UHGV virus genome: UHGV-1528002
Direction: 5' to 3' (one strand)
Source of the DNA: a virus
DNA: 36,070 nt
Under the pieces are notes generated by a model, which saw only the letters and a list, made by a program, of their open reading frames with translations, had not been told where the DNA came from and ran no database searches. The stretch's first letter is position 1. Every line of letters starts with the position of its first letter. Both the position numbers and the translations under genes were made by a program. Shown piece after piece: positions 8,296 through 35,209 of this stretch.

Positions 8296-8338
8296 ATTGA
8301 TTTCGTGTCTTATGTGGTTTTTAATTACCTAAGAGGTA
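8296..8338 (+). promoter_or_regulatory. Promoter with overlapping operator for the DUF1064 gene
   Basis: TTGATT (8296-8301), 17 bp, TTTAAT (8319-8324), then TTACCTAAGAGGTAA (8324-8338) starting at the last T of the -10. Confidence 0.55.
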
Positions 8339-8342
8339 AATC

Positions 8343-8687
8343 ATGAGAAAACAGATACAGGCTCTTGGTCGACTCAAAACAGGCCAGATGAACAAAACAG
8401 AATCTGCGTATTGCCAGCACCTTGAGCTGCGTAAACGTGCAGGAGAAATCGTCTGGTATCGATTTGAGGGTATCAAGCTGCGGTTAGCTGACAACACGTT
8501 CTATACGCCCGATTTTGCTGTGATGCTCGCCACCGGCGAGATGGAACTGCACGAAGTGAAAGGTTTCTGGACCGACGACGCCAGGGTGAAAACCAAAGTC
8601 GCCGCAGATCAGTATCCGTTCCGAATCATCGGGGTAACGGTTAAACCAAAGAAAGCAGGTGGTGGCTGGAACATCGAAGAGTTCTGA
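8343..8687 (+). CDS. DUF1064-family phage protein (putative small nuclease/resolvase-like)
   Basis: 114 aa; pattern recalled as DUF1064 (GEIVWYRFEGIKLRLADNTFYTPDFAV...HEVKGFWTDDARVKTKV). Confidence 0.55.
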   Translation: MRKQIQALGRLKTGQMNKTESAYCQHLELRKRAGEIVWYRFEGIKLRLADNTFYTPDFAVMLATGEMELHEVKGFWTDDARVKTKVAADQYPFRIIGVTVKPKKAGGGWNIEEF

Positions 8688-8748
8688 ATCGACGATCTTT
8701 TTAGTTATCAATGTAATCAATAAGTTATGTGGATAAGCGAGGGTAAAG

Positions 8749-9249
8749 ATGGAAAGTAATATCAAAGGGTTAGTTTCCGCCGGGCATGAGATGGCTTCGG
8801 AACTGAAAGCAGAATGTGGTGCCGTTGATATGCGCAGTGTGGCAAAGCTGATCAGCGATTTGGCAACGCAACTGGAAGTGCAACTGGTGCGTGCTAATGC
8901 GCTGGCCGAAGACCACCAGAAAGCGATTGAGTCAATTAAGCAGGCTGATTCGGCTGTTAAGTTGGCACACGAGAAGTTTTCAGCGCTGGCGGCGGAGAAT
9001 GCTGGGCTGAAACATGCAATGGCTGTAACTCTTGAGCATGTGTCGGTCACGGATGCAGGGCAGGCTGGTGTTGCTGCAATGATTATCAACGATGCCCTAC
9101 ACCACAGCGAAACTCCAGCCACCGATGCTTTTCTGGCTGAAGTACGTGCGCAGGGCGTGGAGATGTTTGCGGAGTGTGCATACACACTTGAACATCATGA
9201 TCACGCAGTAGCTTTTGCCGCCGAGCTACGTGAAGGAGGCAACAAGTGA
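8749..9249 (+). CDS. Hypothetical phage protein (possibly Ea22-like)
   Basis: 166 aa, Ala/Glu-rich helical; GAGGG RBS. Confidence 0.5.
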   Translation: MESNIKGLVSAGHEMASELKAECGAVDMRSVAKLISDLATQLEVQLVRANALAEDHQKAIESIKQADSAVKLAHEKFSALAAENAGLKHAMAVTLEHVSVTDAGQAGVAAMIINDALHHSETPATDAFLAEVRAQGVEMFAECAYTLEHHDHAVAFAAELREGGNK

Positions 9250-9545
9250 CTGTATGTCTTATTGATAAACGTCGACGTGGGCAACAAATACCATCTGTTG
9301 AAATGCCGAATCACACATGGTTTTGCGTACTTGATATCGATGGTATGGATACGTTGATCGACACTCGTCATTACTGCGATACCGCAACAGCTACTCCTGC
9401 AAAAGCAAAGAAAATGGCTGCTCTGATAGAAAACTGGACTCCACCTGATGGTTGGTGCAATGGGAATGATCGAGATTGGCACGAAAAAATGAAGGGCTAT
9501 ATCTGCGATTTTTTACGTAAATGCAACGGATTCAGGGTGATGTGA
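9246..9545 (+). CDS. Hypothetical protein (GTG start overlapping the upstream stop)
   Basis: 99-aa ORF, GTGA overlap; no recognisable domain. Confidence 0.4.
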   Translation: MTVCLIDKRRRGQQIPSVEMPNHTWFCVLDIDGMDTLIDTRHYCDTATATPAKAKKMAALIENWTPPDGWCNGNDRDWHEKMKGYICDFLRKCNGFRVM

Positions 9546-9546
9546 T

Positions 9547-9945
9547 ATGACCAAAATTAACTATCAGGCACTGCGTGAGGCGGCAGAGCGTGCAATTCCG
9601 GCAATGGAACGCCTGTTAATGTTGCCAGTTGATGATGATCTGATAAGCGAGCAGGAACTTAAAGATAGCGGTGTTGATATTGATGCGCTCAATGCCTTCA
9701 AAATTCTGGCCGGACCAGAAAGCGTGCTGGCGCTACTGGATGAACTAGAAGCTAAAAACAAACGCATTACAGAACTGGAAGCGAGGGAAGTTCAATTACC
9801 GACTCGCTACGACCTTCGATATGGGCACCCAATAAATGCTAATAAGCGGCATGTCATGATACCTAAAGAAAATGGCAGTTGGCTTTGCCTGATTGACTTA
9901 GAACACGCACTACGCGTCGCTGGCATTCGCATCAAAGGAGAGTGA
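9547..9945 (+). CDS. Ead/Ea22-like protein
   Basis: N-terminus MTKINYQALREAAERA and PESVLALLDELEAKNKRITELE match the recalled Ea22-like pattern. Confidence 0.5.
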   Translation: MTKINYQALREAAERAIPAMERLLMLPVDDDLISEQELKDSGVDIDALNAFKILAGPESVLALLDELEAKNKRITELEAREVQLPTRYDLRYGHPINANKRHVMIPKENGSWLCLIDLEHALRVAGIRIKGE

Positions 9946-9946
9946 T

Positions 9947-10312
9947 ATGGCACTGACGAAAAAACAACGTGCAGAGCTGCGCATGAAGTTCGGCGGTCGC
10001 TGTGCTTATTGCGGCTGCGAACTTGGCGAAAAGTGGCATGCAGACCATGTAAAACCGGTCATTCGTTTTGCTGGAAATATGCTTCACCAGGAACGTGACG
10101 ATATATCCAACATGGTTCCGGCATGCCACCCATGCAATCTGCACAAGCATTGCAGCAGCCTGGAAGATTATCGGCGAATTATCAGTGATGGTCGTCGTGA
10201 ATTCCTTGCGTCCGGGAAAGGCAAAGCGCTGGTTCGTATGGGATTGGTTGAAATGAAATCTGACCCGATTGTGTTCTGGTTTGAAAAATATCAAGAAGGG
10301 GCTACGGCATGA
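9947..10312 (+). CDS. HNH endonuclease
   Basis: CAYCGC...HADHVKP...ACHPCNLHKH: paired Cys zinc ligands with His-Asp-His catalytic motif. Confidence 0.75.
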   Translation: MALTKKQRAELRMKFGGRCAYCGCELGEKWHADHVKPVIRFAGNMLHQERDDISNMVPACHPCNLHKHCSSLEDYRRIISDGRREFLASGKGKALVRMGLVEMKSDPIVFWFEKYQEGATA

Positions 10313-10698
10313 CCACTATTACCAGAGAAAACGCGGAAATTAAATCATTCATCACTGGTTTCCTGAGCGACCCGGCGCACGATAACCAATCTTCAAACAG
10401 CCTGCTTGCCAATGTGTTTCGTATTGCACTGGTATCGCTGGAAGCAAAACCAATAGGTGCATTTCACATTGCAGAACAGCAAGTTGACGGCACAAGTGAC
10501 TACATCAAGGATGGGGAGTGGCCTATTGATAATGGAATTATTGAGGTCTACGCCGCTCCACCCGTTCCAGTAGTACCGGAAGAAAAACCAATGCCTAATC
10601 CTCTTAGCATGTACGCGGTTGATGCTGTTGCTGCTATTGCAGAGGTGAGAGGCTGGAACGCCTGCCGTGCCGCTATGCTTCAGGGAAAAGGAGAGTGA
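10309..10698 (+). CDS. Hypothetical phage protein
   Basis: 129 aa; shares its first codons (ATGACCACTAT, MTTIT) with the next gene. Confidence 0.5.
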   Translation: MTTITRENAEIKSFITGFLSDPAHDNQSSNSLLANVFRIALVSLEAKPIGAFHIAEQQVDGTSDYIKDGEWPIDNGIIEVYAAPPVPVVPEEKPMPNPLSMYAVDAVAAIAEVRGWNACRAAMLQGKGE

Positions 10699-10699
10699 T

Positions 10700-11272
10700 A
10701 TGACCACTATAACCGATAAGAAACAGTATCCCAGCGATCAATATCTTAATGAGCTGATCACCAACATGGAGTTTGCTGCAAGGGCACCAGTTGAAGTCGT
10801 GAGAGTGATGGCAGCAGAGCTACAGAAGCGGCGCGAAGCTGATAGTGCAGAACCTGTAAGCCAAACTTACAACTTGCCACAAACGCACTTTGAACAGGTT
10901 GCTGACCTTTACGAAATGCAATTTGAGGATGGACGCACTTGTGCCTTTCATACTGATGCGAAAAAGGCTGCGCAATGGCTTCAGTCATGTGACGGAAACA
11001 GGGTTCAGGAATATGTGAAGCTGGAGCGGTTGCAGAACGCGCTGTCTGGCAACTCTCCGGTAACTCAGGATGGCTGGATAAGCTGTAGTGAGCGAATGCC
11101 AAACGAAGAAGATGTTTTGGTTTATTGCTCAGACACAAAAGAGCAGATGGTAGGGTTTCACAAAGGTAAAGGGTTATTTCAATTCTTTTACATGAATGGT
11201 GTTGAGGGGGTATGTGAGCCGTCACACTGGATGCCACTACCAGAACCGCCGCAGGAGGTTAACCGTGGCTAA
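10700..11272 (+). CDS. DUF551-domain phage protein
   Basis: C-terminal DGWISCSERMPNEEDVLVYC...HWMPLPEPP recalled as the DUF551 pattern; ATG 10700 behind GGAGAG RBS. Confidence 0.55.
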   Translation: MTTITDKKQYPSDQYLNELITNMEFAARAPVEVVRVMAAELQKRREADSAEPVSQTYNLPQTHFEQVADLYEMQFEDGRTCAFHTDAKKAAQWLQSCDGNRVQEYVKLERLQNALSGNSPVTQDGWISCSERMPNEEDVLVYCSDTKEQMVGFHKGKGLFQFFYMNGVEGVCEPSHWMPLPEPPQEVNRG

Positions 11273-11546
11273 CCTGCAACTTGCCGTCAAAGGTGAATAT
11301 TTCGACCAGATGAAGTCAGGCGAGAAAACGGAAGAGTATCGCCTGTGTAATGACTACTGGAATAAGCGAATTATGTTCCGGGAGTATGACCGCCTGATTA
11401 TCACAAAGGGATATCCGAAGCGCGACGATTCCTGCCGCAGAATTGACGTCCCGTATGACGGATATGAAATCAAGACAATCACACATCCGCACTTCGGTGA
11501 TAAACCGGTAAAGGTGTTCGCGATAAAGGTAAATATTGATGGCTAA
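11265..11546 (+). CDS. ASCH/DUF3850-like small protein (GTG start)
   Basis: GTG 11265 behind GGAGG RBS; LQLAVKGEYFDQMKSGEKTEEYR resembles the ASCH-fold N-terminus. Confidence 0.4.
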   Translation: MANLQLAVKGEYFDQMKSGEKTEEYRLCNDYWNKRIMFREYDRLIITKGYPKRDDSCRRIDVPYDGYEIKTITHPHFGDKPVKVFAIKVNIDG

Positions 11547-11877
11547 ATCAGCAGCAGAGCGCAAAGCCGCTCAGAGAGCCAGACAAGCTGCATCTGGTGT
11601 GCGTAAGCTGGAGATTGTGCTTGATGCTCAGGAAATTGAAATGCTGGAGCGTAACTGTGCCACACGTCGCCCCGGGCGTGCGCCTTACGAATTTGGTGAG
11701 TATATAGCGTTACTGATCCGCCAGGATGATGCACGCGTGCGCGGGCGTATAAAATCGATCAGCAGAAAACGTTGCGGTAAGTGCGGCGAGAGAGTTCCTG
11801 TGAATTCATGCCCGTGTAATGGTGACTCGCAATGCTGGGTGACTAAAGGCTGGCATGAAACGAAATTAATAGTGTGA
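11539..11877 (+). CDS. Hypothetical basic protein with C-terminal Cys4 zinc ribbon (candidate regulator)
   Basis: N-terminal basic helical segment (AERKAAQRARQAASGVRKLEIVLDAQEIEMLERN) and CGKCGERVPVNSCPC cluster; last gene before the late region. Confidence 0.45.
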   Translation: MAKSAAERKAAQRARQAASGVRKLEIVLDAQEIEMLERNCATRRPGRAPYEFGEYIALLIRQDDARVRGRIKSISRKRCGKCGERVPVNSCPCNGDSQCWVTKGWHETKLIV

Positions 11878-11885
11878 CATGTCAC
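11873..11885. repeat. Palindrome TGTGACATGTCAC, copy 1
   Basis: Perfect palindrome overlapping the stop codon of the upstream gene; same 13-mer at 14324 and 31845. Confidence 0.7.
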
Positions 11886-11894
11886 GAAGGTGTT

Positions 11895-12107
11895 ATGCCA
11901 AAAATACGCTACGACCTTGAAGATATGAGAGATAACTCAGCAAATTTTCCGAAAGAGGTTAAATTTCTCATGCATAAGTATGGTTGCGCCAGGAGGGATA
12001 TAGTTATCGACAGTCAGCACCCTTGCGGCGAGGATGTAATTTTCATTCGCGGTAAATGGGAAGGGTATCTTGACGAGAGTTTTTACGATGAATTTGATGG
12101 ACTTTGA
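11895..12107 (+). CDS. Hypothetical small protein in an AT-rich moron
   Basis: 70-aa ORF from ATG 11895 in a low-GC segment, preceded by the palindrome and followed by a terminator. Confidence 0.35.
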   Translation: MPKIRYDLEDMRDNSANFPKEVKFLMHKYGCARRDIVIDSQHPCGEDVIFIRGKWEGYLDESFYDEFDGL

Positions 12108-12112
12108 ATACT

Positions 12113-12139
12113 GCCGCCAACTATGGCGGCTTTATTTTG
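12113..12139 (+). terminator. Rho-independent terminator just upstream of the terminase genes
   Basis: GCCGCC-aactat-GGCGGC followed by TTTATTTTG. Confidence 0.6.
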
Positions 12140-12181
12140 CATGGTACTATTACCACAACGGTAACTATTACCAAGGTGGTT

Positions 12182-12778
12182 ATGATGCCTGCTGAACCTA
12201 AAACCTATAAACGCAAATCAACGCAATTTAAGCCACTAACAGCAATGCAGGAGGCTTATTGCCAGTCATACATCAAAACGCCTGAAAACCAGACTCAGGC
12301 AGCGATTAACGCAGGATTCTCCCCAAATACAGCGGCAGTTAAAGCCAGTGTCATGATGCGCGATGAACGCATTCAAAAACGGATTGCCGAGTTGATGGAG
12401 GAGCGCAACAAACGAATGCGCGTCAGTGCTGATTACGTTCTCATGCGCCTGGTGGAGATCGACCAGATGGACGTGATCGACATCCTCAACGACGATGGGA
12501 GCCTTAAACCAATCCGTGAGTGGCCGAAAATCTGGCGCACTACGCTTAGTGGCTTTGATCTGTCATCGACCATCATGAACATGAACGAGGATTCGATAGA
12601 GACAATCCTCAAAAAAATTAAATGGCCTGACAAGGTGAAGAACCTTGAGCTGATTGGTAAGCATGTTGATGTCAACGCGTTCAAAGAACGTCTGGATGTT
12701 AATGTGAATGTGACAATTGCTGATCGCATAGCAGCAGCCAGGAAGCGACTCAAAGAACGTCAGGATGGTAATCAGTGA
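12182..12778 (+). CDS. Terminase small subunit
   Basis: ATG 12182 behind AAGGTGG RBS (the track's longer ORF spans the terminator); AYCQSYIKTPENQTQAAINAGFSPNTAAVKAS matches the small-terminase pattern; overlaps the large subunit gene. Confidence 0.75.
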   Translation: MMPAEPKTYKRKSTQFKPLTAMQEAYCQSYIKTPENQTQAAINAGFSPNTAAVKASVMMRDERIQKRIAELMEERNKRMRVSADYVLMRLVEIDQMDVIDILNDDGSLKPIREWPKIWRTTLSGFDLSSTIMNMNEDSIETILKKIKWPDKVKNLELIGKHVDVNAFKERLDVNVNVTIADRIAAARKRLKERQDGNQ

Positions 12779-14250
12779 CAGATACAGCGTTATCTCCTGA
12801 AGAGCAGTTGATCGAGGATATTGCAGGGTTCACTCACGATCCGCTTGGTTATGCCCTCTATGCGTTCCCGTGGGGGGAAGAGGGGACTGAACTGGCACAT
12901 GCCACCGGTCCACGTCAGTGGCAGGCCGATGCGTTCCGAGAGATACGTGATCACCTGCAGAATCCAGAGACGCGCTATCAGCCGCTTATGCTGGCACGCG
13001 CTTCTGGTCACGGTATTGGTAAATCCGCATTCATCTCAATGCTGATCAACTGGGGCATGTCCACTTGCGAGGATTGTAAGGTCGTGGTGACCGCCAACAC
13101 CGACAACCAGCTACGAACGAAGACTTGGCCGGAAATTATCAAGTGGTCGAACCTTGCTATCACGAAAGACTGGTTTACCTGTACCGCTACCGCGATGTAC
13201 AGCAATGATCCTGGGCACGACAAGCGGTGGCGAGCTGACGCAATCCCCTGGTCTGAGCACAACACTGAGGCATTCGCCGGACTACACAACGAGCGCAAAC
13301 GCATCATCGTGGTATTCGATGAAGCGTCGAACATTGCGGATCTGGTGTGGGAAGTTGCCGAGGGTGCGCTAACGGACGAAGACACTGAGATTATCTGGGT
13401 GGCGTTCGGAAACCCGACGCGTAATACCGGACGTTTCCGCGAATGTTTCCGCAAATATAAACACCGCTGGAAAACTGCGCAGATTGACAGCCGGACGGTG
13501 GAAGGCACTAACAAACAGCAGTTGCAGAAATGGGTTGATGACTACGGGGAAGACAGCGACTTCGTTAAAATCCGTGTGCGCGGCATATTCCCGGATGCAT
13601 CTGAATTGCAGTTTATCCCTACCGGACTTACTGACGAGGCAATGAAACGGGTGGTCACCGCTGCGCAGGTTGCACATGCTCCGGTGATAATCGGCGTTGA
13701 CCCGGCATACTCAGGCGTTGATGATGCGGTGATATACCTGCGGCAGGGGCTGCACAGTAAGGTGCTGTGGACCGGCAACAAGACCACTGACGATCTGATT
13801 ATGGCAAAGCGTATCGCTGACTTTGAAGACCAGTATCAGGCTGACGCGGTGTTCATCGACTTCGGTTACGGAACTGGTCTGAAGTCAATCGGTGACGGCT
13901 GGGGTCGTACATGGCAACTTGTTCCGTTCGGTGGCGCGTCTACTGACCCGCAGATGCTCAATAAGCGCGGGGAGATGTTCAACTCATGCAAGACGTGGCT
14001 GAGGCTGGGCGGCATGCTTGATGACCAGGAAACAGCGGACGACCTGTCGGCGGCAGAGTACAAAGTTCGAGTGGACGGTAAAATCGTTATCGAACCGAAG
14101 GAAGATATCAAGGAGCGGCTTGGGCGTTCTCCTGGTAAAGGCGATGCGCTACTGCTGACGTTTGCGTTCCCTGTGTCGAAGCGTCTGCGAATTCCCGGGC
14201 AGCAGAACCAGCAAGGCAAGGCCATCACAGATTACGATCCATATGCTTAA
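12775..14250 (+). CDS. Terminase large subunit
   Basis: 491 aa; ATPase region (ARASGHGIGKS, VVFDEASN) and C-terminal nuclease region; position next to the small subunit. Confidence 0.85.
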   Translation: MTDTALSPEEQLIEDIAGFTHDPLGYALYAFPWGEEGTELAHATGPRQWQADAFREIRDHLQNPETRYQPLMLARASGHGIGKSAFISMLINWGMSTCEDCKVVVTANTDNQLRTKTWPEIIKWSNLAITKDWFTCTATAMYSNDPGHDKRWRADAIPWSEHNTEAFAGLHNERKRIIVVFDEASNIADLVWEVAEGALTDEDTEIIWVAFGNPTRNTGRFRECFRKYKHRWKTAQIDSRTVEGTNKQQLQKWVDDYGEDSDFVKIRVRGIFPDASELQFIPTGLTDEAMKRVVTAAQVAHAPVIIGVDPAYSGVDDAVIYLRQGLHSKVLWTGNKTTDDLIMAKRIADFEDQYQADAVFIDFGYGTGLKSIGDGWGRTWQLVPFGGASTDPQMLNKRGEMFNSCKTWLRLGGMLDDQETADDLSAAEYKVRVDGKIVIEPKEDIKERLGRSPGKGDALLLTFAFPVSKRLRIPGQQNQQGKAITDYDPYA

Positions 14251-14300
14251 TCCGCTGGTGGGGATAATGTCGTTGATATCCTCTGATGAGGATAAAACAA

Positions 14301-14323
14301 AGCCAGCTCATCGGCTGGCTGTT
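14301..14323. terminator. Bidirectional terminator-like hairpin between convergent genes
   Basis: AGCCAGC-tcatcg-GCTGGCT; T-rich tract on the minus strand (TTTGTTTTAT) and GTTTG on the plus strand. Confidence 0.5.
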
Positions 14324-14336
14324 TGTGACATGTCAC
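14324..14336. repeat. Palindrome TGTGACATGTCAC, copy 2
   Basis: Identical 13-mer; shares the extended flank ...GTCACG-GTGTTA with copy 1. Confidence 0.7.
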
Positions 14337-14340
14337 GGTG

Positions 14341-14760
14341 TTACTTAATGGCATTAAATCCAGCGTTGATGGCTTCCGCAATATTGATGGCACTTGTTTT
14401 ATCGAAGTGCCCATTCTGAATAAGCGCCGCATGCAGGCATTGTAACTTCATGTTGTATAAGTGTTCGCTCATGTAATCATGATCACTTTTTGCTTTAGCG
14501 TAAACAGCGCGAGAAATATCAAACATATCGCCTTTTTCCATTTCAGAACGTTGTGCTGTTATCCAGTCATGGAACGTAACGCTAGTACCATGGTCTTCGC
14601 TAAGAGTTAACCCGGCCAGTCCCTCACTCTGAATTACTTCGTAATGCATTTCATTACCAGCAAAAACGCCATAAAAAACGCAGTCTTCAGCCTGAACGAT
14701 ACGAGAATATTTTAATGGCCATTCATTTAGATACTTAGCCAACATATCAATTGTCTTCAT
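14341..14760 (-). CDS. Hypothetical protein (inverted moron between terminase and portal)
   Basis: 139-aa ORF opposite to the flanking late genes; AAGGTGAG RBS directly after a terminator hairpin. Confidence 0.5.
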   Translation of the reverse strand: MKTIDMLAKYLNEWPLKYSRIVQAEDCVFYGVFAGNEMHYEVIQSEGLAGLTLSEDHGTSVTFHDWITAQRSEMEKGDMFDISRAVYAKAKSDHDYMSEHLYNMKLQCLHAALIQNGHFDKTSAINIAEAINAGFNAIK

Positions 14761-14770
14761 AATCTCACCT

Positions 14771-14797
14771 TAAAAAAATGCCCGGACGAACCGGGCG
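14771..14797 (-). terminator. Rho-independent terminator between the tRNA and the moron gene
   Basis: Minus strand GCCCGG-ttcgt-CCGGGC followed by TTTTTTT. Confidence 0.6.
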
Positions 14798-14870
14798 AAC
14801 TGGAAGCAATGAGTTCTGCCTTCCGTGGCTGTACTGGTTTACAGCATGAAGTCATCGCAATGGCGTCCTG

Positions 14871-14916
14871 CTGTAAAAAGGGCGGTGATAGTCCTTCAAG
14901 GGAAACCATCACCGCC
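14871..14916 (-). terminator. Terminator-like long hairpin downstream of the tRNA
   Basis: Minus strand 9-bp stem GGCGGTGAT...ATCACCGCC with 18-nt loop followed by CTTTTT. Confidence 0.4.
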
Positions 14917-14959
14917 AAGCACCTGGAACTTCTGGCATCACGGTCCTTAGGCGTGATTC

Positions 14960-15036
14960 TGGCGTGGCATGCAGGATTCGAACCTGCGACCAACCGCTTA
15001 GAAGGCGGTTGCTCTGTCCAACTGAGCTAATGCCAC
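14960..15036 (-). tRNA. tRNA-Arg, anticodon UCU, CCA encoded
   Basis: Minus strand folds as a cloverleaf: acceptor GTGGCAT/ATGCCAC, D-stem GCTC/GAGC, anticodon stem ACCGC/GCGGT with loop CTTCTAA, T-arm GCAGG-TTCGAATC-CTGC, discriminator G plus CCA. Confidence 0.85.
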
Positions 15037-15358
15037 AACGCTGAGAGCACTTAGCCTGTTAAGGCGCCACACTTTGTCGCGGCTCCATAAATGCTCTCAT
15101 CGTTGTACCCTCGTCTCTTCCGAGGCGTCACACCGAATCGCCGGGATGGTGAATCCCCGTGCGCGGAATAAAACCGCTCGACTTGCACATTCCGGCTACC
15201 TGGTTCGTTTGCCCGAGCAAGGGAGGGTGCCCCTTAAACGTATCCAGACCGCTATCGGCGCATGTGCCATACGCCGTACTGCTCAAAATAAAAGCTCACT
15301 CCACCTGTTCAATTTAACGACAAGCCAGTCATGTTAGTAACCGGAATGAACTCTTTGG

Positions 15359-15373
15359 TTACCTCAAAGGTAA
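15359..15373. promoter_or_regulatory. Operator palindrome TTACCTCAAAGGTAA
   Basis: Exact consensus copy in the 427-bp non-coding region between the tRNA and the gp6.7-like gene; minus-strand flank AATTAT-TACCT as at PL. Confidence 0.45.
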
Positions 15374-15463
15374 TAATTCGCGCATTAAATGTCAACTGCC
15401 TACGATAAATAAATCATATGTGGTTAAATTGGTAATAATTTAATTGCGTACGGAGTCATTGAT

Positions 15464-15670
15464 ATGTGCATGGGTAGCTCACCATCAGTGCCTGCAACAC
15501 CAGAAGTTCAGGCAGCACCACAGGAGCAGGATGCCGCCGTTGTTGATGCCCGCGACGAAGAAACTCGTCGCCGTCGCGCTGCTGCTGGTCGTAGTTCTAC
15601 GCTGCTTACCGGTTCTCAGGGCGACACATCAACCGCTAAGACCAGCGGTAAAACGCTGCTTGGTCAGTAA
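15464..15670 (+). CDS. Small virion protein resembling T7 gp6.7
   Basis: 68 aa starting MC, Ser/Thr/Ala-rich with basic C-terminus; sits directly upstream of the portal gene as in T7. Confidence 0.5.
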   Translation: MCMGSSPSVPATPEVQAAPQEQDAAVVDARDEETRRRRAAAGRSSTLLTGSQGDTSTAKTSGKTLLGQ

Positions 15671-15684
15671 CCGGAGTCATTGAA

Positions 15685-17364
15685 ATGGCGGAAACAACTA
15701 AAGAGCGATTGAACAAACAGTTCGCACAACTTGAAAGCGAGCGTCAGTCGTTCGAGCCGCACTGGCGCGAGTTGAGTGATTACATCAACCCACGTGGTTC
15801 CCGCTTTCTGACTTCTGAGGTCAACCGTAACGATCGACGCAATACACGCATTATTGATTCGACCGGGACTATGGCGGCGCGCACTCTCGCCAGCGGCATG
15901 ATGTCAGGCATCACAAGCCCCGCGCGTCCGTGGTTTCGCCTGGCTACGCCAGATCCTGAAATGATGGATTATGGCCCTGTTAAGTTGTGGCTTGAGGCGG
16001 TGCAGAACCGCATGAACGATATGTTCAATAAGTCGAATCTCTACCAGTCTCTTCCGCAGTTATACGGAAGCCTCGGCACATACAGCACCGGTGCAATGGC
16101 GGTACTGGAGGATGACGAGGACATCATTCGCACAATGCCATTCCCGATAGGCAGTTACTACCTGGCTAACTCACCTCGTGGCAGTGTGGACACCTGTTTT
16201 CGCAAGTTCTCTATGACCGTTCGTCAGCTTGTTCAGGAGTTCGGGCTAAATAACGTCAGCGAATCCGTAAAAAGCATGTGGGAAAGCGGCACCTACGAGA
16301 AGTGGATTGAAGTGATGCATTCGGTTTACCCGAACATTGACCGCGATACATCGAAGCTGGATAGCAAGAACAAGCCATTCAAATCGGTTTATTACGAGGT
16401 TGGCGGTGATAACGACAAGTTGTTGCGTGAGTCCGGATTCGATGAGTTTCCAATTATGGCTCCGCGCTGGGAAGTTAATGGCGAAGATGTTTATGGATCA
16501 TCATGCCCGGGTATGCTGGCGCTTGGACCTGTTAAGGCATTGCAGCTTCTCCAGAAGCGCAAGTCGCAGTTGATTGATAAAGCCACCAATCCGCCGATGG
16601 TTGCTCCGACTTCCCTCAAGAATCAGCGCGCCTCCCTTCTTCCTGGCGACATCACGTATATCGATCAGATTACTGGTCAGGATGGATTCAGGCCTGCTTA
16701 TCTGGTTAACCCCAGTACAGCAGATTTGGTGGCAGACATTCAGGACACTCGTCAAATCATTAACAGCGCCTACTTTGTCGATCTGTTCATGATGTTGCAG
16801 AACATCAATACCCGCTCGATGCCTGTTGAAGCGGTGATCGAAATGAAAGAAGAAAAACTTCTGATGTTGGGGCCGGTTCTGGAGCGTCTGAACGACGAAT
16901 GTCTTAATCCTCTCATTGACCGCGCTTTCTCGATGATGGTGCGTAAAAACATGCTGCCGCCACCGCCTGACGCGATGGAAGGCATGCCCCTGAAGGTCGA
17001 ATACATTTCCGTCATGGCTCAGGCGCAGAAGTCTATCGGCCTGTCCAGTCTGGCGTCCACGGTTAACTTCATTGGTCAACTTGCGCAAGCGAAACCAGAA
17101 GCTCTCGACAAACTCAACGTTGATCAGGCGATCGATGCATTCGCTGATATGTCCGGAGTGTCTCCAACCGTCATTGTTCCGCAGGAACAGGTTGAGCAGG
17201 CTCGCCAGCAACGGGCACAGCAGCAACAGCAGCAACAAATGATGGCGATGGGGATGGCGGCGGCACAGGGTGTCAAGACGCTAAGTGAAGCTAAAACTTC
17301 GGATCCGAGTGTGTTGTCAGCTATGGCGAATGCAGTTAGTGGTCAGGGTGGGCAATCACAATGA
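15685..17364 (+). CDS. Portal (head-to-tail connector) protein, T7 gp8-like
   Basis: 559 aa; Gln-rich C-terminus QQRAQQQQQQQMMAMGMAAAQG parallels the T7 gp8 C-terminus; followed by scaffold and capsid genes. Confidence 0.8.
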   Translation: MAETTKERLNKQFAQLESERQSFEPHWRELSDYINPRGSRFLTSEVNRNDRRNTRIIDSTGTMAARTLASGMMSGITSPARPWFRLATPDPEMMDYGPVKLWLEAVQNRMNDMFNKSNLYQSLPQLYGSLGTYSTGAMAVLEDDEDIIRTMPFPIGSYYLANSPRGSVDTCFRKFSMTVRQLVQEFGLNNVSESVKSMWESGTYEKWIEVMHSVYPNIDRDTSKLDSKNKPFKSVYYEVGGDNDKLLRESGFDEFPIMAPRWEVNGEDVYGSSCPGMLALGPVKALQLLQKRKSQLIDKATNPPMVAPTSLKNQRASLLPGDITYIDQITGQDGFRPAYLVNPSTADLVADIQDTRQIINSAYFVDLFMMLQNINTRSMPVEAVIEMKEEKLLMLGPVLERLNDECLNPLIDRAFSMMVRKNMLPPPPDAMEGMPLKVEYISVMAQAQKSIGLSSLASTVNFIGQLAQAKPEALDKLNVDQAIDAFADMSGVSPTVIVPQEQVEQARQQRAQQQQQQQMMAMGMAAAQGVKTLSEAKTSDPSVLSAMANAVSGQGGQSQ

Positions 17365-19846: not shown

Positions 19847-20191
19847 GTGATATCGATGTCAGGTGAGAAACCAAGATACCGCGTTCTGCGCCTCTCTCAT
19901 ATCCATAACACACTGTGGCCGGAGGGGGCAGAAATCGAATACGAAGGTGAGCCTGGTAGCGCACTGGAACCTGTTAACGATGCAGCCAGACAGGCAAAAG
20001 CAAAAGTTGCAGGAAAGGTGTCAATGGCAGCAACCAGCACCAAAATCATCAACGATGTGTCAGATGATGGTGAACTGGATAAGCTCCGTGAAGAGTACGA
20101 ATTGCTCTTTAACGAGAAGCCACACCATAACGCCAAAGCTGAAACGCTCCGCGAGAAGATCGCAGATAAGCGTAAAGAACTGGGCGTGTAA
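19847..20191 (+). CDS. Hypothetical protein
   Basis: 114-aa ORF in the late operon, followed by a terminator. Confidence 0.45.
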   Translation: MISMSGEKPRYRVLRLSHIHNTLWPEGAEIEYEGEPGSALEPVNDAARQAKAKVAGKVSMAATSTKIINDVSDDGELDKLREEYELLFNEKPHHNAKAETLREKIADKRKELGV

Positions 20192-31849: not shown

Positions 31850-31858
31850 CATGTCACA
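31845..31858. repeat. Palindrome TGTGACATGTCACA, copy 3
   Basis: Perfect 14-bp palindrome overlapping the stop codon of the membrane-protein gene. Confidence 0.7.
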
Positions 31859-31883
31859 GGCCGCTTTCGCGGCCTTGTTTTTT
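31859..31883 (+). terminator. Rho-independent terminator ending the rightward late/accessory operon
   Basis: GGCCGC-tttc-GCGGCC followed by TTGTTTTTT. Confidence 0.65.
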
Positions 31884-32043
31884 AACGAATGCCACCGCCG
31901 CCCGGGCGGGAATCCGCAGAACGCCCACCGCAGCGGGAGCCGTCAGCGGCAGTATCGCTGTCGTGCTGACAACGACCGGCAAAGGCCTGAGTTGAAGCTA
32001 CCAGAGACAACAAAACGAACAGTGCAGCAAATGCTTTTTTCAT
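31882..32043 (-). CDS. Small secreted peptide (53 aa precursor)
   Basis: MKKAFAALFVLLSLVASTQAFA signal peptide with AxA site, about 31-aa mature part with 2 Cys; own TTGACG-16-TATAGA promoter-like region at 32050-32080. Confidence 0.4.
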   Translation of the reverse strand: MKKAFAALFVLLSLVASTQAFAGRCQHDSDTAADGSRCGGRSADSRPGGGGIR

Positions 32044-32112
32044 TGTGAAATTTCCATCTATAAGCCACCTCAATGTGGCGTCAATGAGTGTAGCACTGAC
32101 TTTTGTTTCGTC

Positions 32113-32138
32113 CACAAAAAAGCCCGCGCTGCGGGCTT
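32113..32138 (-). terminator. Rho-independent terminator after the 210-aa gene
   Basis: Minus strand AAGCCCGC-agc-GCGGGCTT followed by TTTTTTG. Confidence 0.65.
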
Positions 32139-32141
32139 CTA

Positions 32142-32774: not shown

Positions 32775-32833
32775 TTCGTCCTCCCATGTTTGGCTACAGG
32801 ACGCGTTTTGAAGGGAAGATTAAAAATGCTTTC

Positions 32834-32876
32834 TTACCCTTGAGGTAATAGTACGCTATTCACCCCCAGTCTGCAA
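32834..32876 (-). promoter_or_regulatory. Promoter with overlapping operator for the 210-aa gene
   Basis: Minus strand TTGCAG (plus 32871-32876), 17 bp, TACTAT (plus 32848-32853), then TTACCTCAAGGGTAA (plus 32834-32848) starting at the last T of the -10. Confidence 0.55.
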
Positions 32877-32919
32877 TCTGTACAGAATTATTTAAAGGCA
32901 CGTCCCTGTGCCGCCGCCG

Positions 32920-33606
32920 TCAGAAGAACCCTGCCTTGTCGTTGATGTACTCCGCGTGGGTCTGGATATCACGCAGGCATTTACTCACACCGACGATGTA
33001 GCAGAACATGGTGGTCAGTTCCGCCGCCGCGCCCGATACGTCATGCCCGTCTTCCTGTAACTGGTTCAGCAAATTCATCAGCAGTGAGTTCTCCGTCAGG
33101 CCGAGAACACCAGACGGCGAATGAATCAGGCTGCGGTAGCCGGGCTTCAGCGGGGCACTGTAGGTTTTGTTCTCTATCTTCATCGCCTGCATCACTGCTG
33201 ATGCTGTGGCGTTTGCAACCTGGTCGGCAACCATCTTTATGCGTTCTTCCTGCGGGAGCGAGTTTTTAATGTAACTTCCGGTGCGGCGGATCTGAGGAAG
33301 AACCTCACCTGTAACCCATTTACGAAAGCGGTAGGGGATAGTGCCTGGTGTCACCGCATCGCGGCAGCGGAGGATCAGTGTGTAGAGGCCTGACTCGCTG
33401 ATAATATTGGTTTCGCCTTGACGACCTAAGTTAAATTTAGCCCTTTCATCATCATCAAGAGATTTGATTGACATGGTGGGGTTTGTCAGTTGAAGAGCTT
33501 TAATAACGTCTTTGGCAACAAACCAAGGATTTCCATCAATAACAATGGCTCGAATGGTTGCTTCTGATTCAAAATGAAAAACAGATGGGGTTACGTTAGC
33601 AGTCAT
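32920..33606 (-). CDS. Antirepressor, BRO-N domain with KilAC-like C-terminal domain
   Basis: N-terminal FHFESEATIRAIVIDGNPWFVAKDVIKALQL...IISESGLYTLILRC is the BRO-N pattern; ATG 33606 behind AAGGTGA RBS; C-terminal 75 aa are paralogous to the small gene at 34757-35014. Confidence 0.8.
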   Translation of the reverse strand: MTANVTPSVFHFESEATIRAIVIDGNPWFVAKDVIKALQLTNPTMSIKSLDDDERAKFNLGRQGETNIISESGLYTLILRCRDAVTPGTIPYRFRKWVTGEVLPQIRRTGSYIKNSLPQEERIKMVADQVANATASAVMQAMKIENKTYSAPLKPGYRSLIHSPSGVLGLTENSLLMNLLNQLQEDGHDVSGAAAELTTMFCYIVGVSKCLRDIQTHAEYINDKAGFF

Positions 33607-33762
33607 GGCAATCACCTTTTAGTATGGTTAATCACCACCTGAGGTGCAAATCTCGTTGGTGGTGAGACGTACAGGGTTTGCACTACCGGCTAAAAGGACC
33701 CGGCGCACCTTTCGGTGCCCCTGCACGTCCCACCATAATTCTGGCATGACTGTGCTATACGC

Positions 33763-33784
33763 ATAAAAAAACCACGTCTGGCGT
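33763..33784 (-). terminator. Terminator-like hairpin inside the antirepressor 5' leader
   Basis: Minus strand CCACG-ccaga-CGTGG followed by TTTTTTT, about 160 nt upstream of the antirepressor start. Confidence 0.45.
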
Positions 33785-33877
33785 GGTATGCGCCTTTTAG
33801 TAATCCGGGGTGCAAATCCCGGCACTGGATTTTGCCAGTGCTCAATTACTATGGCACAAGAGGAGTGCGATGTAAAT

Positions 33878-33921
33878 TTACCGCAAAGGTAATGATAAAC
33901 GCTGATAAATATAAAAATCAA
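33878..33921 (-). promoter_or_regulatory. Leftward promoter with overlapping operator driving the antirepressor leader
   Basis: Minus strand TTGATT (plus 33916-33921), 18 bp, TATCAT (plus 33892-33897), then TTACCTTTGCGGTAA (plus 33878-33892) starting at the last T of the -10. Confidence 0.5.
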
Positions 33922-33970
33922 CCGTATTTGGTTGATTGCGTTTAACGCTTGATCACCTGAAAGCAAGATA

Positions 33971-33985
33971 TTACCTTTAAGGTAA
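33971..33985. promoter_or_regulatory. Operator palindrome TTACCTTTAAGGTAA
   Basis: Exact consensus copy 21 bp upstream of the ATG of the membrane zinc-ribbon gene. Confidence 0.5.
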
Positions 33986-34005
33986 TGTTATTGTGAGGAA
34001 AAGCA

Positions 34006-34734
34006 ATGGAAGTTTTCTGGATAGTTGTTGGTGTGGTTGCGGTGATTATTTACGTTATCAACCAGAACAAGACTAAGATCTCTGATCGTACGGTCGTTAA
34101 TCATAACAAAACGATAAAGACCGAAGATGGGGAGATAACGATTAATCGTACACAGGTGATAGAACACACCTCTACTCAGTTTCAAAAAACTGGAGGTAAT
34201 GCGCCTAATATTTCCGCACCTCCTGCTTATGATAGTGCGGTAATCCAGACATATTATAAACAGCAGGAGTTAGCAAAAGAGAGGCAACTGATTCAGCCAA
34301 AGCCGTTTACAGCTGAGCTTCCACCTGGAGTGTCAACGCGTCCGGCATATCATGGAAGATTCCCTGGTGATGACATATCGTCTCAGTCATCTAAAAAAGC
34401 ACCTCAGGCAGTATCAGAGCCAGCAAGAATACCTTCTGTATCGCCGCCAAAAGAAGAATCAGCTAACAGAGTTTCAAGTGGTAGCAAGCAGTGCTTGCGA
34501 TGCAGAATAAACCTTCCATATGAAAAATTCAGGAAATCGTCAAAAAATCCAGATGGATTGACTAAGTGGTGTGCAAGGTGTCTCGATGGCCCAAAGAATA
34601 CACGCCATATGAAGTGGTGCCCAATTTGTAATGTCCGCAGAAAACGAACCAGCTTTTACCCTAATAATCAAAATGCGGACGGCTTAATGGCATGGTGCAA
34701 AACGTGCTGGGATGAGCACAAAGCGAAACGATAG
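34006..34734 (+). CDS. Membrane-anchored protein with tandem C-terminal zinc ribbons
   Basis: N-terminal TM helix (VFWIVVGVVAVIIYVI), low-complexity linker, two repeats of CxxC...NPDGL..WCxxC; GAGGAAAA RBS. Confidence 0.55.
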   Translation: MEVFWIVVGVVAVIIYVINQNKTKISDRTVVNHNKTIKTEDGEITINRTQVIEHTSTQFQKTGGNAPNISAPPAYDSAVIQTYYKQQELAKERQLIQPKPFTAELPPGVSTRPAYHGRFPGDDISSQSSKKAPQAVSEPARIPSVSPPKEESANRVSSGSKQCLRCRINLPYEKFRKSSKNPDGLTKWCARCLDGPKNTRHMKWCPICNVRRKRTSFYPNNQNADGLMAWCKTCWDEHKAKR

Positions 34735-34756
34735 GCCGCTCTTGCGGCCTTTAAAT

Positions 34757-35014
34757 TTACCGGGTTTGTTTTCGTAATTGTTCGGCACAATAGTCGAGAT
34801 GTGTTTGCAGATCCTGCATAGACATCTGTGAGCTGGTGACGTAGTTAATCAGTGCAGTCAGTTCGGCAAGTGGGCCATCGACATTAAATCCATCCTTATC
34901 GAGATCCCGGAGTAATTTCATCAAGTGCGATCCCTCCACCAGTGATCTGACGCCTCCCGGCGTGTGAATCCTTTCGGTAAATCCGTCTTCCAGTGGATAG
35001 TGATACTGCTGCAT
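34757..35014 (-). CDS. Small KilAC-like protein (stand-alone antirepressor C-domain paralog), candidate SOS-induced antirepressor
   Basis: ATG 35014 behind GGAGAAG RBS (the track's longer ORF begins at TTG 35032); about 40% identity to the C-terminus of the BRO-N antirepressor (e.g. IHTPGGV / IHSPSGV, AELT, DLQTH / DIQTH); LexA box 22 bp upstream. Confidence 0.55.
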   Translation of the reverse strand: MQQYHYPLEDGFTERIHTPGGVRSLVEGSHLMKLLRDLDKDGFNVDGPLAELTALINYVTSSQMSMQDLQTHLDYCAEQLRKQTR

Positions 35015-35033
35015 CTTATCTTCTCCATGCAAT

Positions 35034-35053
35034 AACTGTATAAATATACAGTA
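35034..35053. promoter_or_regulatory. LexA (SOS) box
   Basis: AACTGTATAAATATACAGTA: CTGT-N8-ACAG with AT-rich spacer, 18 of 20 matches to TACTGTATATATATACAGTA. Confidence 0.75.
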
Positions 35054-35090
35054 TCAAATAATTTGTTTGCTATCCAGCACGTTTTGCAAA

Positions 35091-35105
35091 TTACCTGAAA
35101 GGTAA
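35091..35105. promoter_or_regulatory. Operator palindrome TTACCTGAAAGGTAA
   Basis: Exact consensus copy in the divergent region between the small KilAC-like gene and the tail-fibre gene. Confidence 0.5.
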
Positions 35106-35209
35106 TATCTATTCATATTCACAGTCTTTCTATCCATATGTGGTTTTTCAGGTAATAGAATAACCAGATATGCGGCGCAACGGGTGCTGCGACTATCTGG
35201 AGATTTAAC

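Follow-up and report, generated by a model that had tools for sequence, protein, structure and literature searches.

The Rep Operators and the Three 9-mer Sites

The window, i.e., the whole stretch of 36,070 nucleotides that was analyzed, is a Uetakevirus (epsilon15/phiV10-like) prophage. Its immunity repressor Rep (gene at 5292–5876, minus strand; HTH_3 and YdaS-type HTH matches) is homologous to the epsilon15 repressor, which is linked in that record to PDB 5D50. The Rep operator has the form TTACC-N5-GGTAA, which is matched 16 times with up to two mismatches (0.56 expected) and the center of which is free to vary (identity 0.56–0.65). Operators of this epsilon15/SPC32H type (GenBank AY150271.2, 'repressor' protein_bind; Rep-Ant system of Kim et al., 2016) belong to the same phage genus, and the annotated repressor sites of epsilon15 before gp43, gp3, and the tailspike gene are positional homologs of the window operators at 8263, 8325, 15359, and 35091. 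At PL and at the DUF1064 promoter, operators are paired at a conserved spacing of 62 bp.

The 9-mer TATGTGGTT occurs exactly three times in the window, always on the plus strand (8311–8319, 15417–15425, and 35137–35145; sites 1, 2, and 3), as the original prediction had it; the expected count is 0.17, and three copies were reached in 0 of 100 shuffles. The immediate settings that had been described for these copies could also be read in the sequence. At sites 2 and 3 the 9-mer is directly preceded by CATA (15413–15416 and 35133–35136) and followed after 5 nt by GGTAATA (TGGTAATA, 15430–15437; AGGTAATA, 35150–35157), the GGTAAT of which equals the right arm plus flank of an epsilon15-type Rep operator, whereas at site 1 it is preceded by TCT and followed by TTTAAT (8320–8325), the full operator TTACCTAAGAGGTAA (8325–8339), and an ATG at 8343. 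Unlike full epsilon15-type operators, sites 2 and 3 thus carry one operator arm only; as the operator center measures 5 bp, the GGTAA arm at site 1 comes 15 nt after the 9-mer, out of register with the half-sites of the other two. A feature absent from the original prediction is a full operator 46–58 bp upstream of each 9-mer (8263, 15359, and 35091).

The 9-mer forms the right, better conserved half of a 14-bp dyad, here called pal, with the consensus A-W-C-C-A-T-A-T-A-T-G-G-T-T. At site 1, pal (TGTCTTATGTGGTT, 8306–8319; identified from the sequence and its relatives) has a weak left arm, and the dyads found at this position in relatives are stronger (Tyrion, AACCGTATATGGAT; Klebsiella, ATCCGTTTATGGTT). 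It takes up 14 of the 17 spacer bases between the −35-like TTGATT (8297–8302, plus strand; TATTGA is kept in 8 genomes) and the −10-like TTTAAT on the same strand (TTTAAT, TTAAAT, or ATAAAT in relatives), assignments which, like all −10 and −35 assignments here, are consensus readings. A simple sigma-70 scan did not call this DUF1064 promoter, probably because its −10 is without A at position 2. The distal operator TTACCTATCAGGTAA (8263–8277), an exact TTACC-N5-GGTAA homologous to protein_bind 35906–35922 of epsilon15, is separated by 62 bp in 8/8 genomes from the proximal operator at 8325–8339, recognized by operator match, whose right arm also serves the ATG as its Shine-Dalgarno sequence.

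At site 2, upstream of the head (gp3/portal) operon, a full operator (15359–15373; homolog of the epsilon15 repressor site 2931–2947) is followed by pal AATCATATGTGGTT (15412–15425), which has a position weight matrix (PWM) score of 18.7 as against a shuffled maximum averaging 13.9, and, 5 nt after pal, by the half-site GGTAAT (15431–15436, plus strand), recognized from sequence and spacing. The half-site overlaps the candidate −10 hexamers TAATAA (15433–15438), TAATTT (15436–15441), and TTTAAT (15439–15444). If a pseudo-operator at 15421–15435 is assumed, with this half-site for its right arm, its derived start lies 62 bp from the full operator, the same spacing as in the operator pairs at PL and the DUF1064 promoter; in Pantoea, 2 extra nt in the gap would make this distance 64. 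Site 3 consists of a full operator upstream of the tail-fiber gene (35091–35105; homolog of epsilon15 site 19895–19911), pal ATCCATATGTGGTT (35132–35145; PWM score 21.6), and GGTAATAGAAT (35151–35161, plus strand), in which the half-site GGTAAT (35151–35156) runs into TAGAAT (35156–35161), the best of the −10 candidates. The gap between pal and this half-site is 5 nt (4 in SPN1S), its sequence being variable.

Conservation of Sites 2 and 3

The pattern T.T..GGTT-N3-7-GGTAA has exactly two matches in each of 8 complete Uetakevirus genomes, one before the head operon and one before the tail-spike gene; the 9-mer core and half-site are present in 8/8. Sites 2 and 3 are conserved in relatives from E. 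coli, Salmonella, Enterobacter, and Klebsiella, and the head copy also in those from Pantoea and Buttiauxella. In the head copy, TAT[G/A]TGGTT and AAATTGGTAATAATTTAA are near-invariant across 19 loci from at least 12 lineages, and the distance from operator to 9-mer is 58 bp in 19/19 site 2 loci, including Pantoea with its differing intervening sequence. Nucleotide homology to other genera starts exactly at the operator 15359–15373, and the alignment of Klebsiella phages to the site 2 region is limited to ~100 bp of regulatory DNA. Mean pairwise identity at site 2 (12 lineages) is 0.84 for pal and 0.92 for GGTAATAATTTAA, compared to 0.28 for the left flank and 0.46 for the spacer; at site 3 (six lineages) it is 0.88 for pal and 0.94 for GGTAATAGAAT, compared to 0.38–0.50 for the adjacent spacers, and the third codon positions of the adjoining gene are 0.57 identical. 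Conservation is lost in the spacers that separate these blocks, as it is leftward of the operator at the head site.

On the main one of the two readings in the original prediction, sites 2 and 3 would be degenerated duplicates of the DUF1064 promoter-operator module, here taken to be without present function, a view that would account for the identical 9-mer common to the three sites, and for the single operator arm and the lack of a sigma-70 consensus promoter at sites 2 and 3 (consensus scan). However, both sites rank with the most strongly conserved non-coding DNA of the genus and keep a fixed spacing to the upstream operator, and in most relatives the dyad is stronger there than at site 1, so that this explanation is very improbable. 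The conservation pattern indicates purifying selection rather than decay, and identifies sites 2 and 3 as conserved control sites of the head and tail-fiber operons, not relics.

The pal Dyad and the Rep Operator

With a PWM cut-off set at about the mean shuffled-genome maximum or above, 4–7 copies of pal were found in each of the 8 genomes, all of them in promoter or operator-bearing intergenic regions, namely ahead of the head, tail-spike, and lysis operons and after the cro-position terminator, with further sites in the spacers of PL and the DUF1064 promoter in some lineages only; the scan detected no pal in the PR/PRM region. Up to two mismatches to the consensus are seen at 14 places in the window (4.35 expected) and at 21 in phiV10 (5.35 expected). 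In the left arm, position 1 is A at 41 and position 4 is C at 43 of the 44 listed sites, which represent ~7 site classes in ~6 lineages of related genomes instead of 44 independent events and include sites chosen solely by positional homology. A Rep half-site pentamer (GGTAA or TTACC; background 3.1 per kb) lies within 8 nt of pal in 39 of these 44, the gap being exactly 5 nt in nearly all listed cases.

In contrast to the Rep operator, pal has the form AWCC-N6-GGTT with a conserved, ATATAT-like center, and as the operator center is free to vary, the difference speaks for another protein or another mode of binding. Neither the 9-mer nor the dyad is annotated in any record examined, though a description of the dyad may exist in the literature. 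On the sequence comparisons, the chances are about even that Uetakevirus phages have in pal a second cis-regulatory site, separate from the Rep operator.

The main rival explanation, which we consider possible but rather unlikely, takes pal for an auxiliary Rep site of lower affinity and dispenses with a second factor. Together with the operator, pal would in that case make up a single, extended repressor-binding unit over the promoter core, with one DNA-binding pair of a tetramer on the operator or half-site and the other on pal (centers 19.5 bp apart). In the discussion of Kim et al. (2016) contained in PMC9638917, Rep is reported to be a DNA-binding tetramer with DNA-binding pairs from different dimers, which was counted for this explanation. 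The two motifs share ACC…GGT arms, the center of pal being 1 bp longer, the pentamers show a periodicity of ~10 bp, the 5-nt gap is near-universal, and the second terS operator of several genomes (the window, phiV10, and Tyrion) reads GGTTA in place of GGTAA; this resemblance means that Rep could bind pal. Furthermore, pal and operator always co-occur, both being absent from the heteroimmune Morganellaceae relatives (Proteus, Providencia, and Morganella), and as all genomes examined have one Rep specificity, pal and Rep are not separable by comparison. On the other hand, the outer conserved base is A in pal but T in the operator, the CC-GG spacing is 6 bp instead of 5, and the center is conserved in pal only. 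In addition, the epsilon15 record marks canonical sites only as repressor sites, pal is dispensable beside the PL operator in three lineages, and the lysis-promoter pal is without an adjoining Rep pentamer in most genomes.

A Candidate Composite Promoter

Sites 2 and 3 lie downstream of opposite-strand genes, hence the head and tail-fiber operons need promoters of their own. At the head, tail-fiber, and lysis operons a −35 consensus is lacking, pal occupies roughly −36 to −20 relative to a −10-like hexamer, and a full Rep operator lies 41–53 bp upstream of pal. Pal and the −10 do not keep a constant distance; according to the site, and to which hexamer is taken as the −10, they are 0, 7, or 10 nt apart.

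This arrangement suggests composite promoter cores, in which a second dimeric regulator would sit on pal beside a Rep half-operator, a model that in our view stands about as good a chance of being right as wrong. Pal and the Rep pentamer, usually with the 5-nt gap, would act as one element within the core, and with pal in the −35 position the promoters of the head, tail-fiber, and lysis operons would be late-operon promoters. In the lysogen, Rep would shut them directly via the full operator and the half-site, while during lytic growth the protein on pal would control, and probably activate, them. At the DUF1064 promoter, and at PL in some lineages, a strong promoter has its 17-bp spacer taken up by pal, and a protein bound there would be expected to repress. 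The other suggestion of the original prediction, a second factor that acts on a composite site together with an operator half-site, agrees far better with the anatomy, in which a separate dyad keeps a fixed 5-nt gap to a Rep half-site, but the factor could still be Rep itself.

In this model, the pal binder would most likely be the HTH protein of 76 aa encoded in the cro position (6031–6261, plus strand; phrog_35 'transcriptional repressor', E = 3.5e-12). Homologs of this protein were found only in 35 Uetakevirus-type records and as two weak partial matches in Psychrobacter phages, and its HTH aligns with the N-terminal domain of Rep (27% over 41 aa, E = 0.007); this confinement to the same phage group and the Rep-related HTH support it as a candidate, whereas the lack of pal in PR/PRM would be unusual for the binding site of a Cro analog.

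Two further explanations do without a phage regulator on pal. A host protein of Enterobacteriaceae and Erwiniaceae, either nucleoid-associated or a specific regulator, might bind it, for example bending the DNA between operators 62 bp apart. This would fit the conservation of the motif in phages of at least five host genera, its absence in relatives with Morganellaceae hosts, and its position between the paired operators of PL and the DUF1064 promoter, but the pal copies of sites 2 and 3, of the lysis promoter, and of element 'a' (described below) are not flanked by two full operators, and by direct reading pal is unlike the consensus sites of IHF, CRP, Fis, LexA, and DnaA, so that we regard a host protein as improbable. 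Slightly more improbable still is a direct reading of pal by RNA polymerase as a promoter element, or a DNA-shape need of the spacer or −35 region, with pal being no regulator site at all. Pal always overlaps the promoter core in the spacer or −35 position and has an A+T-rich center, as this would predict; however, its assigned position relative to the −10 differs (about −19.5, −26.5/−29.5, and −40.5), sigma-70 recognition makes no use of dyad symmetry, PL works without pal in three lineages, and the simple consensus scan gives no promoter at sites 2 and 3.

Comparison With Other Phage Control Systems

Activator-dependent phage promoters without a −35 include the P1 late promoters (Lpa inverted repeat near −22), the lambda CII-dependent PRE, PI, and PaQ, and the T4 middle promoters (MotA box near −30). 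The window promoters resemble them in having a −10-like hexamer, no usable −35, and, in the −35 or spacer position, a box that is conserved and recurs before several late operons. They differ in that the box sequence is unrelated, the activator is only a candidate, and each promoter has its own immunity-repressor operator and half-site, whereas the P1 repressor controls the activator gene and is not known to act on each late promoter. As in lambda OR/OL, the gene of an immunity repressor diverges from that of a small HTH protein, both operators are palindromic with related arms, and at PL and the DUF1064 promoter the core promoter is overlapped by these sites. In lambda, however, CI and Cro share common operators and Cro does not control late promoters, while here there are two separate dyads, no pal in the PR/PRM interval, and pal sites at late promoters. 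The lambda Q-binding element, between −35 and −10 of PR′, is likewise a regulator site within a promoter spacer (compare site 1 and PL), but pal is a symmetric dyad, and no Q homolog was found in the window.

Further pal Sites and the Tail-Fiber Leader

The PL region (5158–5234, minus strand) has operators at 5158–5172 and 5220–5234, a −35 of TTGACA (TGTCAA on the plus strand at 5195–5200), and a pal-like ATGCGTATTTGGTT in the spacer (5178–5191), which is strong in Tyrion and BUCT554 and has no counterpart in epsilon15, SPN1S, or the Klebsiella phages. Element 'a' (6317–6377, plus strand), after the cro-position terminator, comprises GTACC..GGTAA (6317–6331), a 5-nt gap, pal AACCAAATATGGTT (6337–6350), TTGATC (6349–6354), and CAAAAT (6372–6377); its pal and the following GATCTTTTTT are found in 8/8 genomes, and the GGTAA arm alone of its operator is invariant. 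Between the C4/isrK-antirepressor operon and the ORF 34006–34734, pal AACCGTATTTGGTT (33920–33933) lies between operators at 33878–33892 and 33971–33985. The lysis operon pal falls outside the window; in phiV10 and Tyrion a perfect dyad, AACCATATATGGTT, is located ahead of the lysis cassette, with 7 nt between it and a downstream TATAAT or TATGAT.

At the start of the tail-fiber leader, a G+C-rich stem-loop is predicted by RNA folding (35168–35196, plus strand; −27.4 kcal/mol for 35120–35212, z = −3.06), which could serve as a 5′ stabilizer or processing site, and the relatives have a G+C-rich segment at this position.

A Repeated 9-mer Is Part of a 14-bp Dyad

The 9-mer TATGTGGTT is found exactly three times in the window, at 8311, 15417 and 35137 and always on the plus strand, where 0.17 occurrences are expected and no shuffled sequence reaches three. 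The copies lie at the DUF1064 promoter (site 1), before the head (gp3/portal) operon (site 2) and before the tail-fibre gene (site 3), and the 9-mer is the right part of a 14-bp dyad, AWCCATATATGGTT, referred to here as pal. Upstream of the phiV10 lysis cassette, pal is the perfect palindrome AACCATATATGGTT, placed 44 bp past an operator and 7 nt before TATAAT, and site 3 (ATCCATATGTGGTT) and site 2 (AATCATATGTGGTT) each show two differences from it. Further copies in the window are AACCAAATATGGTT at 6337, within the operator/pal element that follows the terminator of the cro-position gene (element 'a'), and AACCGTATTTGGTT at 33920 on the antirepressor side, while weaker ones occupy the spacers of PL (5178) and of the DUF1064 promoter (8306).

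With up to two mismatches allowed, the consensus has 14 matches in the window versus 4.35 expected and 21 in phiV10 versus 5.35, and a position weight matrix (PWM) scan gives four to seven sites per genome that score at or above approximately the average maximum of shuffled genomes, every one of them in an intergenic region with operators. In a manual count over 44 listed sites, which include sites defined by positional homology only, position 1 is A in 41 and position 4 is C in 43; since these bases mirror the invariant T14 and G11, the dyad symmetry is real, with the right arm stronger than the left. A pal-like 14-mer, AACGATATCTGGTT, is also seen inside the methyltransferase gene (1854-1867) and in phiV10 (28588), probably by chance or through coding constraint.

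Megablast with window positions 7000-17000 retrieves epsilon15/phiV10-type podophages (genus Uetakevirus) at ~97% identity, and the gene order is that of phiV10 and epsilon15 in prophage orientation. The integrase gene (193-1443) is followed by the leftward early operon, the gene of the immunity repressor Rep (5292-5876, minus strand), the cro-position gene (6031-6261), the replication genes, the DUF1064 gene (8343-8687), the terminase genes (12104-14250), an opposite-strand moron region, gp3 and portal (from 15464) with the structural genes, the antirepressor region and the tail-fibre gene (from 35210). All eight complete genomes compared carry pal upstream of the head genes, upstream of the tail-spike gene and in element 'a', which lies between the cro-position terminator and the replication genes; it also precedes the lysis genes in all five genomes in which the lysis promoter was examined. 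At PL it is lineage-specific: the E. coli group, Tyrion and BUCT554 have it, and epsilon15, SPN1S and the Klebsiella phages do not.

Conservation of the Late-Operon Elements

The original prediction described sites 2 and 3 as decayed duplicates of the module at site 1, and this interpretation is refuted by their conservation in relatives. The pattern T.T..GGTT-N3-7-GGTAA has exactly two matches in each of the eight genomes (phages of E. coli, Salmonella, Enterobacter and Klebsiella), one before the head operon and one before the tail-spike gene. The pal and half-site blocks, a half-site being one arm (GGTAA or TTACC) of the Rep operator, are 0.84-0.94 identical, versus 0.28-0.57 for flanks, spacers and third codon positions. 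As mean pairwise identities, pal reaches 0.84 at site 2 (12 lineages) and 0.88 at site 3 (six lineages), and the half-site block 0.92 and 0.94 (GGTAATAGAAT at site 3), compared with 0.28 and 0.55 for the left flank, 0.46 and 0.38-0.50 for the spacers, and 0.57 for the third codon positions of the gene adjacent to site 3.

Blastn with 15300-15700 reveals homology to other genera that begins exactly at the operator, and three Klebsiella phages align over only ~100 bp, all of it regulatory DNA. Another 16 enterobacterial prophages, among them those of Scandinavium, Kluyvera, Buttiauxella, Pantoea and Erwinia, came from a GTDB scan with a portal-protein alignment; an IMG/VR search with the portal protein returned near-identical E. 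coli prophages only and was uninformative. The resulting 19-locus alignment of site 2 shows no variation in the operator arms and almost none in TAT[G/A]TGGTT and AAATTGGTAATAATTTAA, and the left flank is unrelated between lineages. The distance from operator to 9-mer is 58 bp in all 19 loci, including Pantoea with its differing intervening sequence. At position 4 of the 9-mer, 11 loci have G and eight have A (manual count), and at site 3 the two bases preceding GGTT vary among relatives; because some positions are thus free, the three-fold exact identity within the window is partly luck. Constraint falls on TAT-N-TGGTT at site 2 and, when both late sites are taken together, on ATAT-NN-GGTT. 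The variable moron region of the window, which separates the large terminase gene from the head-promoter operator, carries a tRNA-Arg(TCT) gene (14960-15036, minus strand).

Heteroimmune relatives, namely Proteus, Providencia and Morganella prophages, carry no Rep operator and no clear pal. Other short palindromes occur ~100 bp upstream of gp3 in these loci (L096-L101), with CAATATTG present twice in Proteus and an ACAAT..ATTGT palindrome in Providencia and Morganella, and these are probably operators of a different immunity type.

Coupling to Repressor Half-Sites

The Rep operator TTACC-N5-GGTAA has 16 matches in the window with up to two mismatches, where 0.56 are expected, while the version with a 4-bp centre (TTACCT-N4-AGGTAA) was rejected, having a single match at chance level. 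The contexts first described for the three 9-mers stand, except that the operator centre is 5 bp and that the full operators lying 46-58 bp upstream of each copy (8263, 15359 and 35091) had been missed. The full two-arm pattern is present at these three positions and at 8325-8339, just after the site 1 9-mer, whereas sites 2 and 3 have GGTAA only and read TGGTT at the left-arm position (15421-15425 and 35141-35145). Dispersed operators as such are already known, as the epsilon15 GenBank record annotates 'repressor' sites at the homologous positions (2931-2947, 19895-19911 and 35906-35922, before gp3, tailspike and gp43, corresponding to 15359, 35091 and 8263).

Within the 44-site listing, 39 sites have GGTAA or TTACC no more than 8 nt from pal, against a background of 3.1 such pentamers per kb. 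Almost all listed cases have a gap of exactly 5 nt, and two have one of 4 nt. PL, element 'a' and, in phiV10 and Tyrion, the antirepressor-side site have the order GGTAA-5-pal. Site 1 has pal-5-TTACC, in which TTACC opens a full operator, and the GGTAAT of sites 2 and 3 (pal-5-GGTAAT) lacks a partner arm. No adjoining pentamer is seen at most lysis promoters or at the antirepressor-side copy of the window (33920). The late-operon element is a conserved composite of the 14-bp dyad and a repressor half-operator within promoter cores, and the DUF1064 copy is the same dyad serving as a promoter spacer. Of the two original readings, that of a composite site for a proposed second factor came closer than that of decay.

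Operator pairs are also held at conserved distances, being 62 bp apart (start to start) at the DUF1064/RuvC promoter in all eight genomes (8263/8325 in the window), 62 bp at PL in six and 63 bp in two Klebsiella phages (window 5158/5220), and 48 bp at PR in four. These distances suggest that tetramer bridging or looping follows a fixed geometry. If the half-site of site 2 is taken as the right arm of a pseudo-operator, that pseudo-operator is 62 bp away from the full operator in every Enterobacteriaceae locus and 64 bp in Pantoea (derived), and the equivalent distance at site 3 is 50 bp, or 49 bp in SPN1S (derived from coordinates).

The right arm of the proximal operator doubles as a Shine-Dalgarno sequence for DUF1064 (AGAGGTAAATCATG, 8333-8339) and for terS (GGTGGTTATGATG, 12168-12188). 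Comparison with epsilon15 indicates that terS probably begins at ATG 12186, past both operators (12150 and 12168), and probably not at TTG 12104, which corresponds to the annotated start in phiV10. At site 2, GGTAAT lies between the arms of a perfect 7-bp A+T inverted repeat (TTAAATT/AATTTAA, 15424-15443), partly kept in Pantoea; the repeat may have arisen by chance in DNA so rich in A+T, or it may be a third symmetric element.

Promoter Architecture

Site 1 reads TTGATT-17-TTTAAT and matches 9 of 12 consensus positions, but is not called by a sigma-70 scan because its -10 lacks A at position 2. Site 1 and PL appear to share a layout of -35, 3 nt, pal (14 bp) as the spacer, -10 and then TACC of the proximal operator. 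At sites 2 and 3, which both follow opposite-strand genes, the sigma-70 consensus scan gives no promoter, and from the upstream gene to the start codon conservation is limited to four blocks (operator, pal, half-site/-10 and ribosome-binding site), of which a promoter there would have to be built. Candidate -10 hexamers are TAATAG 7 nt and TAGAAT (35156-35161) 10 nt past pal at site 3, and TAATAA 7 nt and TAATTT 10 nt past pal at site 2; the best ones, all without a -35, are TAGAAT and, at 15436-15444, TAATTT or TTTAAT. The lysis promoters of phiV10 and relatives have TATAAT or TATGAT at 7 nt and no candidate at 10 nt, and at element 'a' TTGATC-17-CAAAAT puts the centre of pal near -40.5.

The site 3 leader is predicted to form a stable G+C-rich stem-loop (35168-35196, z = -3.06), which begins ~7 nt past TAGAAT, a position compatible with transcripts that start just upstream of it; in relatives this place is taken by another G+C-rich segment. 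Possible roles for the stem-loop are that of a 5' stabiliser or of an RNase III-type processing site, a kind of site annotated at other places in epsilon15. A reading of the composite element itself as an RNA structure was rejected, as it matches no Rfam family at the gathering score and site 2 yields only a weak A+U hairpin (z = -1.43); the Rfam hits in the window are a C4 antisense RNA, isrK and the tRNA, all away from the pal elements. Between operator and pal, TGTCAA(T) at 15390-15395 is conserved in all Enterobacteriaceae site 2 loci and reads as a perfect TTGACA on the minus strand. A leftward promoter serving the variable moron/tRNA region could use this TTGACA as its -35, in which case the -10 would fall within the operator.

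Candidate Binding Proteins

Recognition sites for DnaA, CRP, IHF and sigma-54 and an extended -10 were considered for the 9-mer by eye against their consensus sequences, and none fit. It is possible that Rep itself binds pal, as pal resembles an operator with a 1-bp longer, conserved centre, and the second terS operator has GGTTA in place of GGTAA; Rep reportedly works as a tetramer that has two DNA-binding pairs (Kim et al. 2016, as discussed in PMC9638917). However, the two motifs differ in both arm sequence and spacing.

The best candidate for a separate pal binder is the 76-aa helix-turn-helix (HTH) protein encoded at the cro position, to which co-distribution with pal points: its homologues are confined to 37 phage records, 35 of them from the module-carrying Uetakevirus group and two being weak partial matches in Psychrobacter phages. 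The protein matches phrog_35 ('transcriptional repressor') and its HTH aligns weakly with the N-terminal domain of Rep.

The gp49-like 'transcriptional regulator' (11536-11877, plus strand, phrog_536) was considered because it is encoded just before terS, but is not supported, as homologues occur in Pectobacterium phage ZF40 (67% identical) and the lambdoid phage Chlobot (90%), both of whose genomes are devoid of pal and of Rep operators; others are found in N15 (gp46) and in Vibrio and Yersinia phages. This protein has a ribbon-helix-helix-like N-terminus and a C-terminal Cys cluster (CGKCG...CPC...C), with no sequence match in Pfam, NCBIfam or the PDB. The p42-like Zn-ribbon protein (6412-6612) was uninformative, since its domain is spread over many unrelated phages.

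Regulatory Model and Implications

Like activator-dependent, -35-less phage promoters, such as those served by P1 Lpa, lambda CII and T4 MotA, the pal-bearing promoters repeat a conserved box in the -35 or spacer region of several late operons, although pal, compared directly with the consensus sequences, resembles neither TTGC-N6-TTGC nor the MotA box. Unlike the lambda-type operator set shared by CI and Cro between their genes, no pal-scoring site was returned by the PWM scan between the rep and cro-position genes in any of the eight genomes. Judged from motif positions, a second regulator would probably activate the -35-less late promoters and repress from within early spacers, and Rep would control every late promoter directly.

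It can further be speculated, as a rather unlikely extension, that the whole late program runs on -35-less promoters in which a dyad for the Cro-position protein interlocks with the Rep half-operator. With its dyad in the spacer, as at early promoters, the Cro-position protein would then act as a repressor; with the dyad at about -40 or -30, as at replication and late promoters, it would act as an activator. The second element of the dyad composite would be a half-operator for tetrameric Rep, and repressor and activator would compete base for base at every late operon. Should this hold, lysis-lysogeny would be decided by a switch distributed over many points instead of a single central one.

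Serotype conversion, O157 detection and engineering, and the Rep-Ant induction mechanism all have their model phages in epsilon15, phiV10 and SPC32H. None of the records examined annotates how the head, tail and lysis genes are switched on, and neither the 9-mer nor the dyad is annotated in any GenBank record examined. Full-text searches of literature outside the primary papers on this regulation returned nothing on these motifs; the ZX5 paper predicts four promoters, generically. As a kind, a phage operator or activator site is ordinary; what those records leave unannotated is this particular dyad and the fixed way in which it is coupled to a half-site of the repressor. A dyad locked to a repressor half-site offers a concrete, mutable target for finding the missing regulator, lets direct control of late promoters by Rep be tested, and could serve in tightly repressed phage-derived expression parts. 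For annotation, the lesson is that an operator copy can look degenerate and yet be the most tightly constrained non-coding sequence of a phage genome.

On the antirepressor side, the minus strand encodes a C4 antisense RNA (33655-33740, 77.8 bits in Rfam) and an isrK-type sRNA (33765-33841, 67.4 bits). Both immediately precede the gene of the Bro-N antirepressor (32920-33615, minus strand). Given this arrangement, the antirepressor operon appears to be under a P1/P7 immI-like antisense control layer on top of the Rep operator at 33878.
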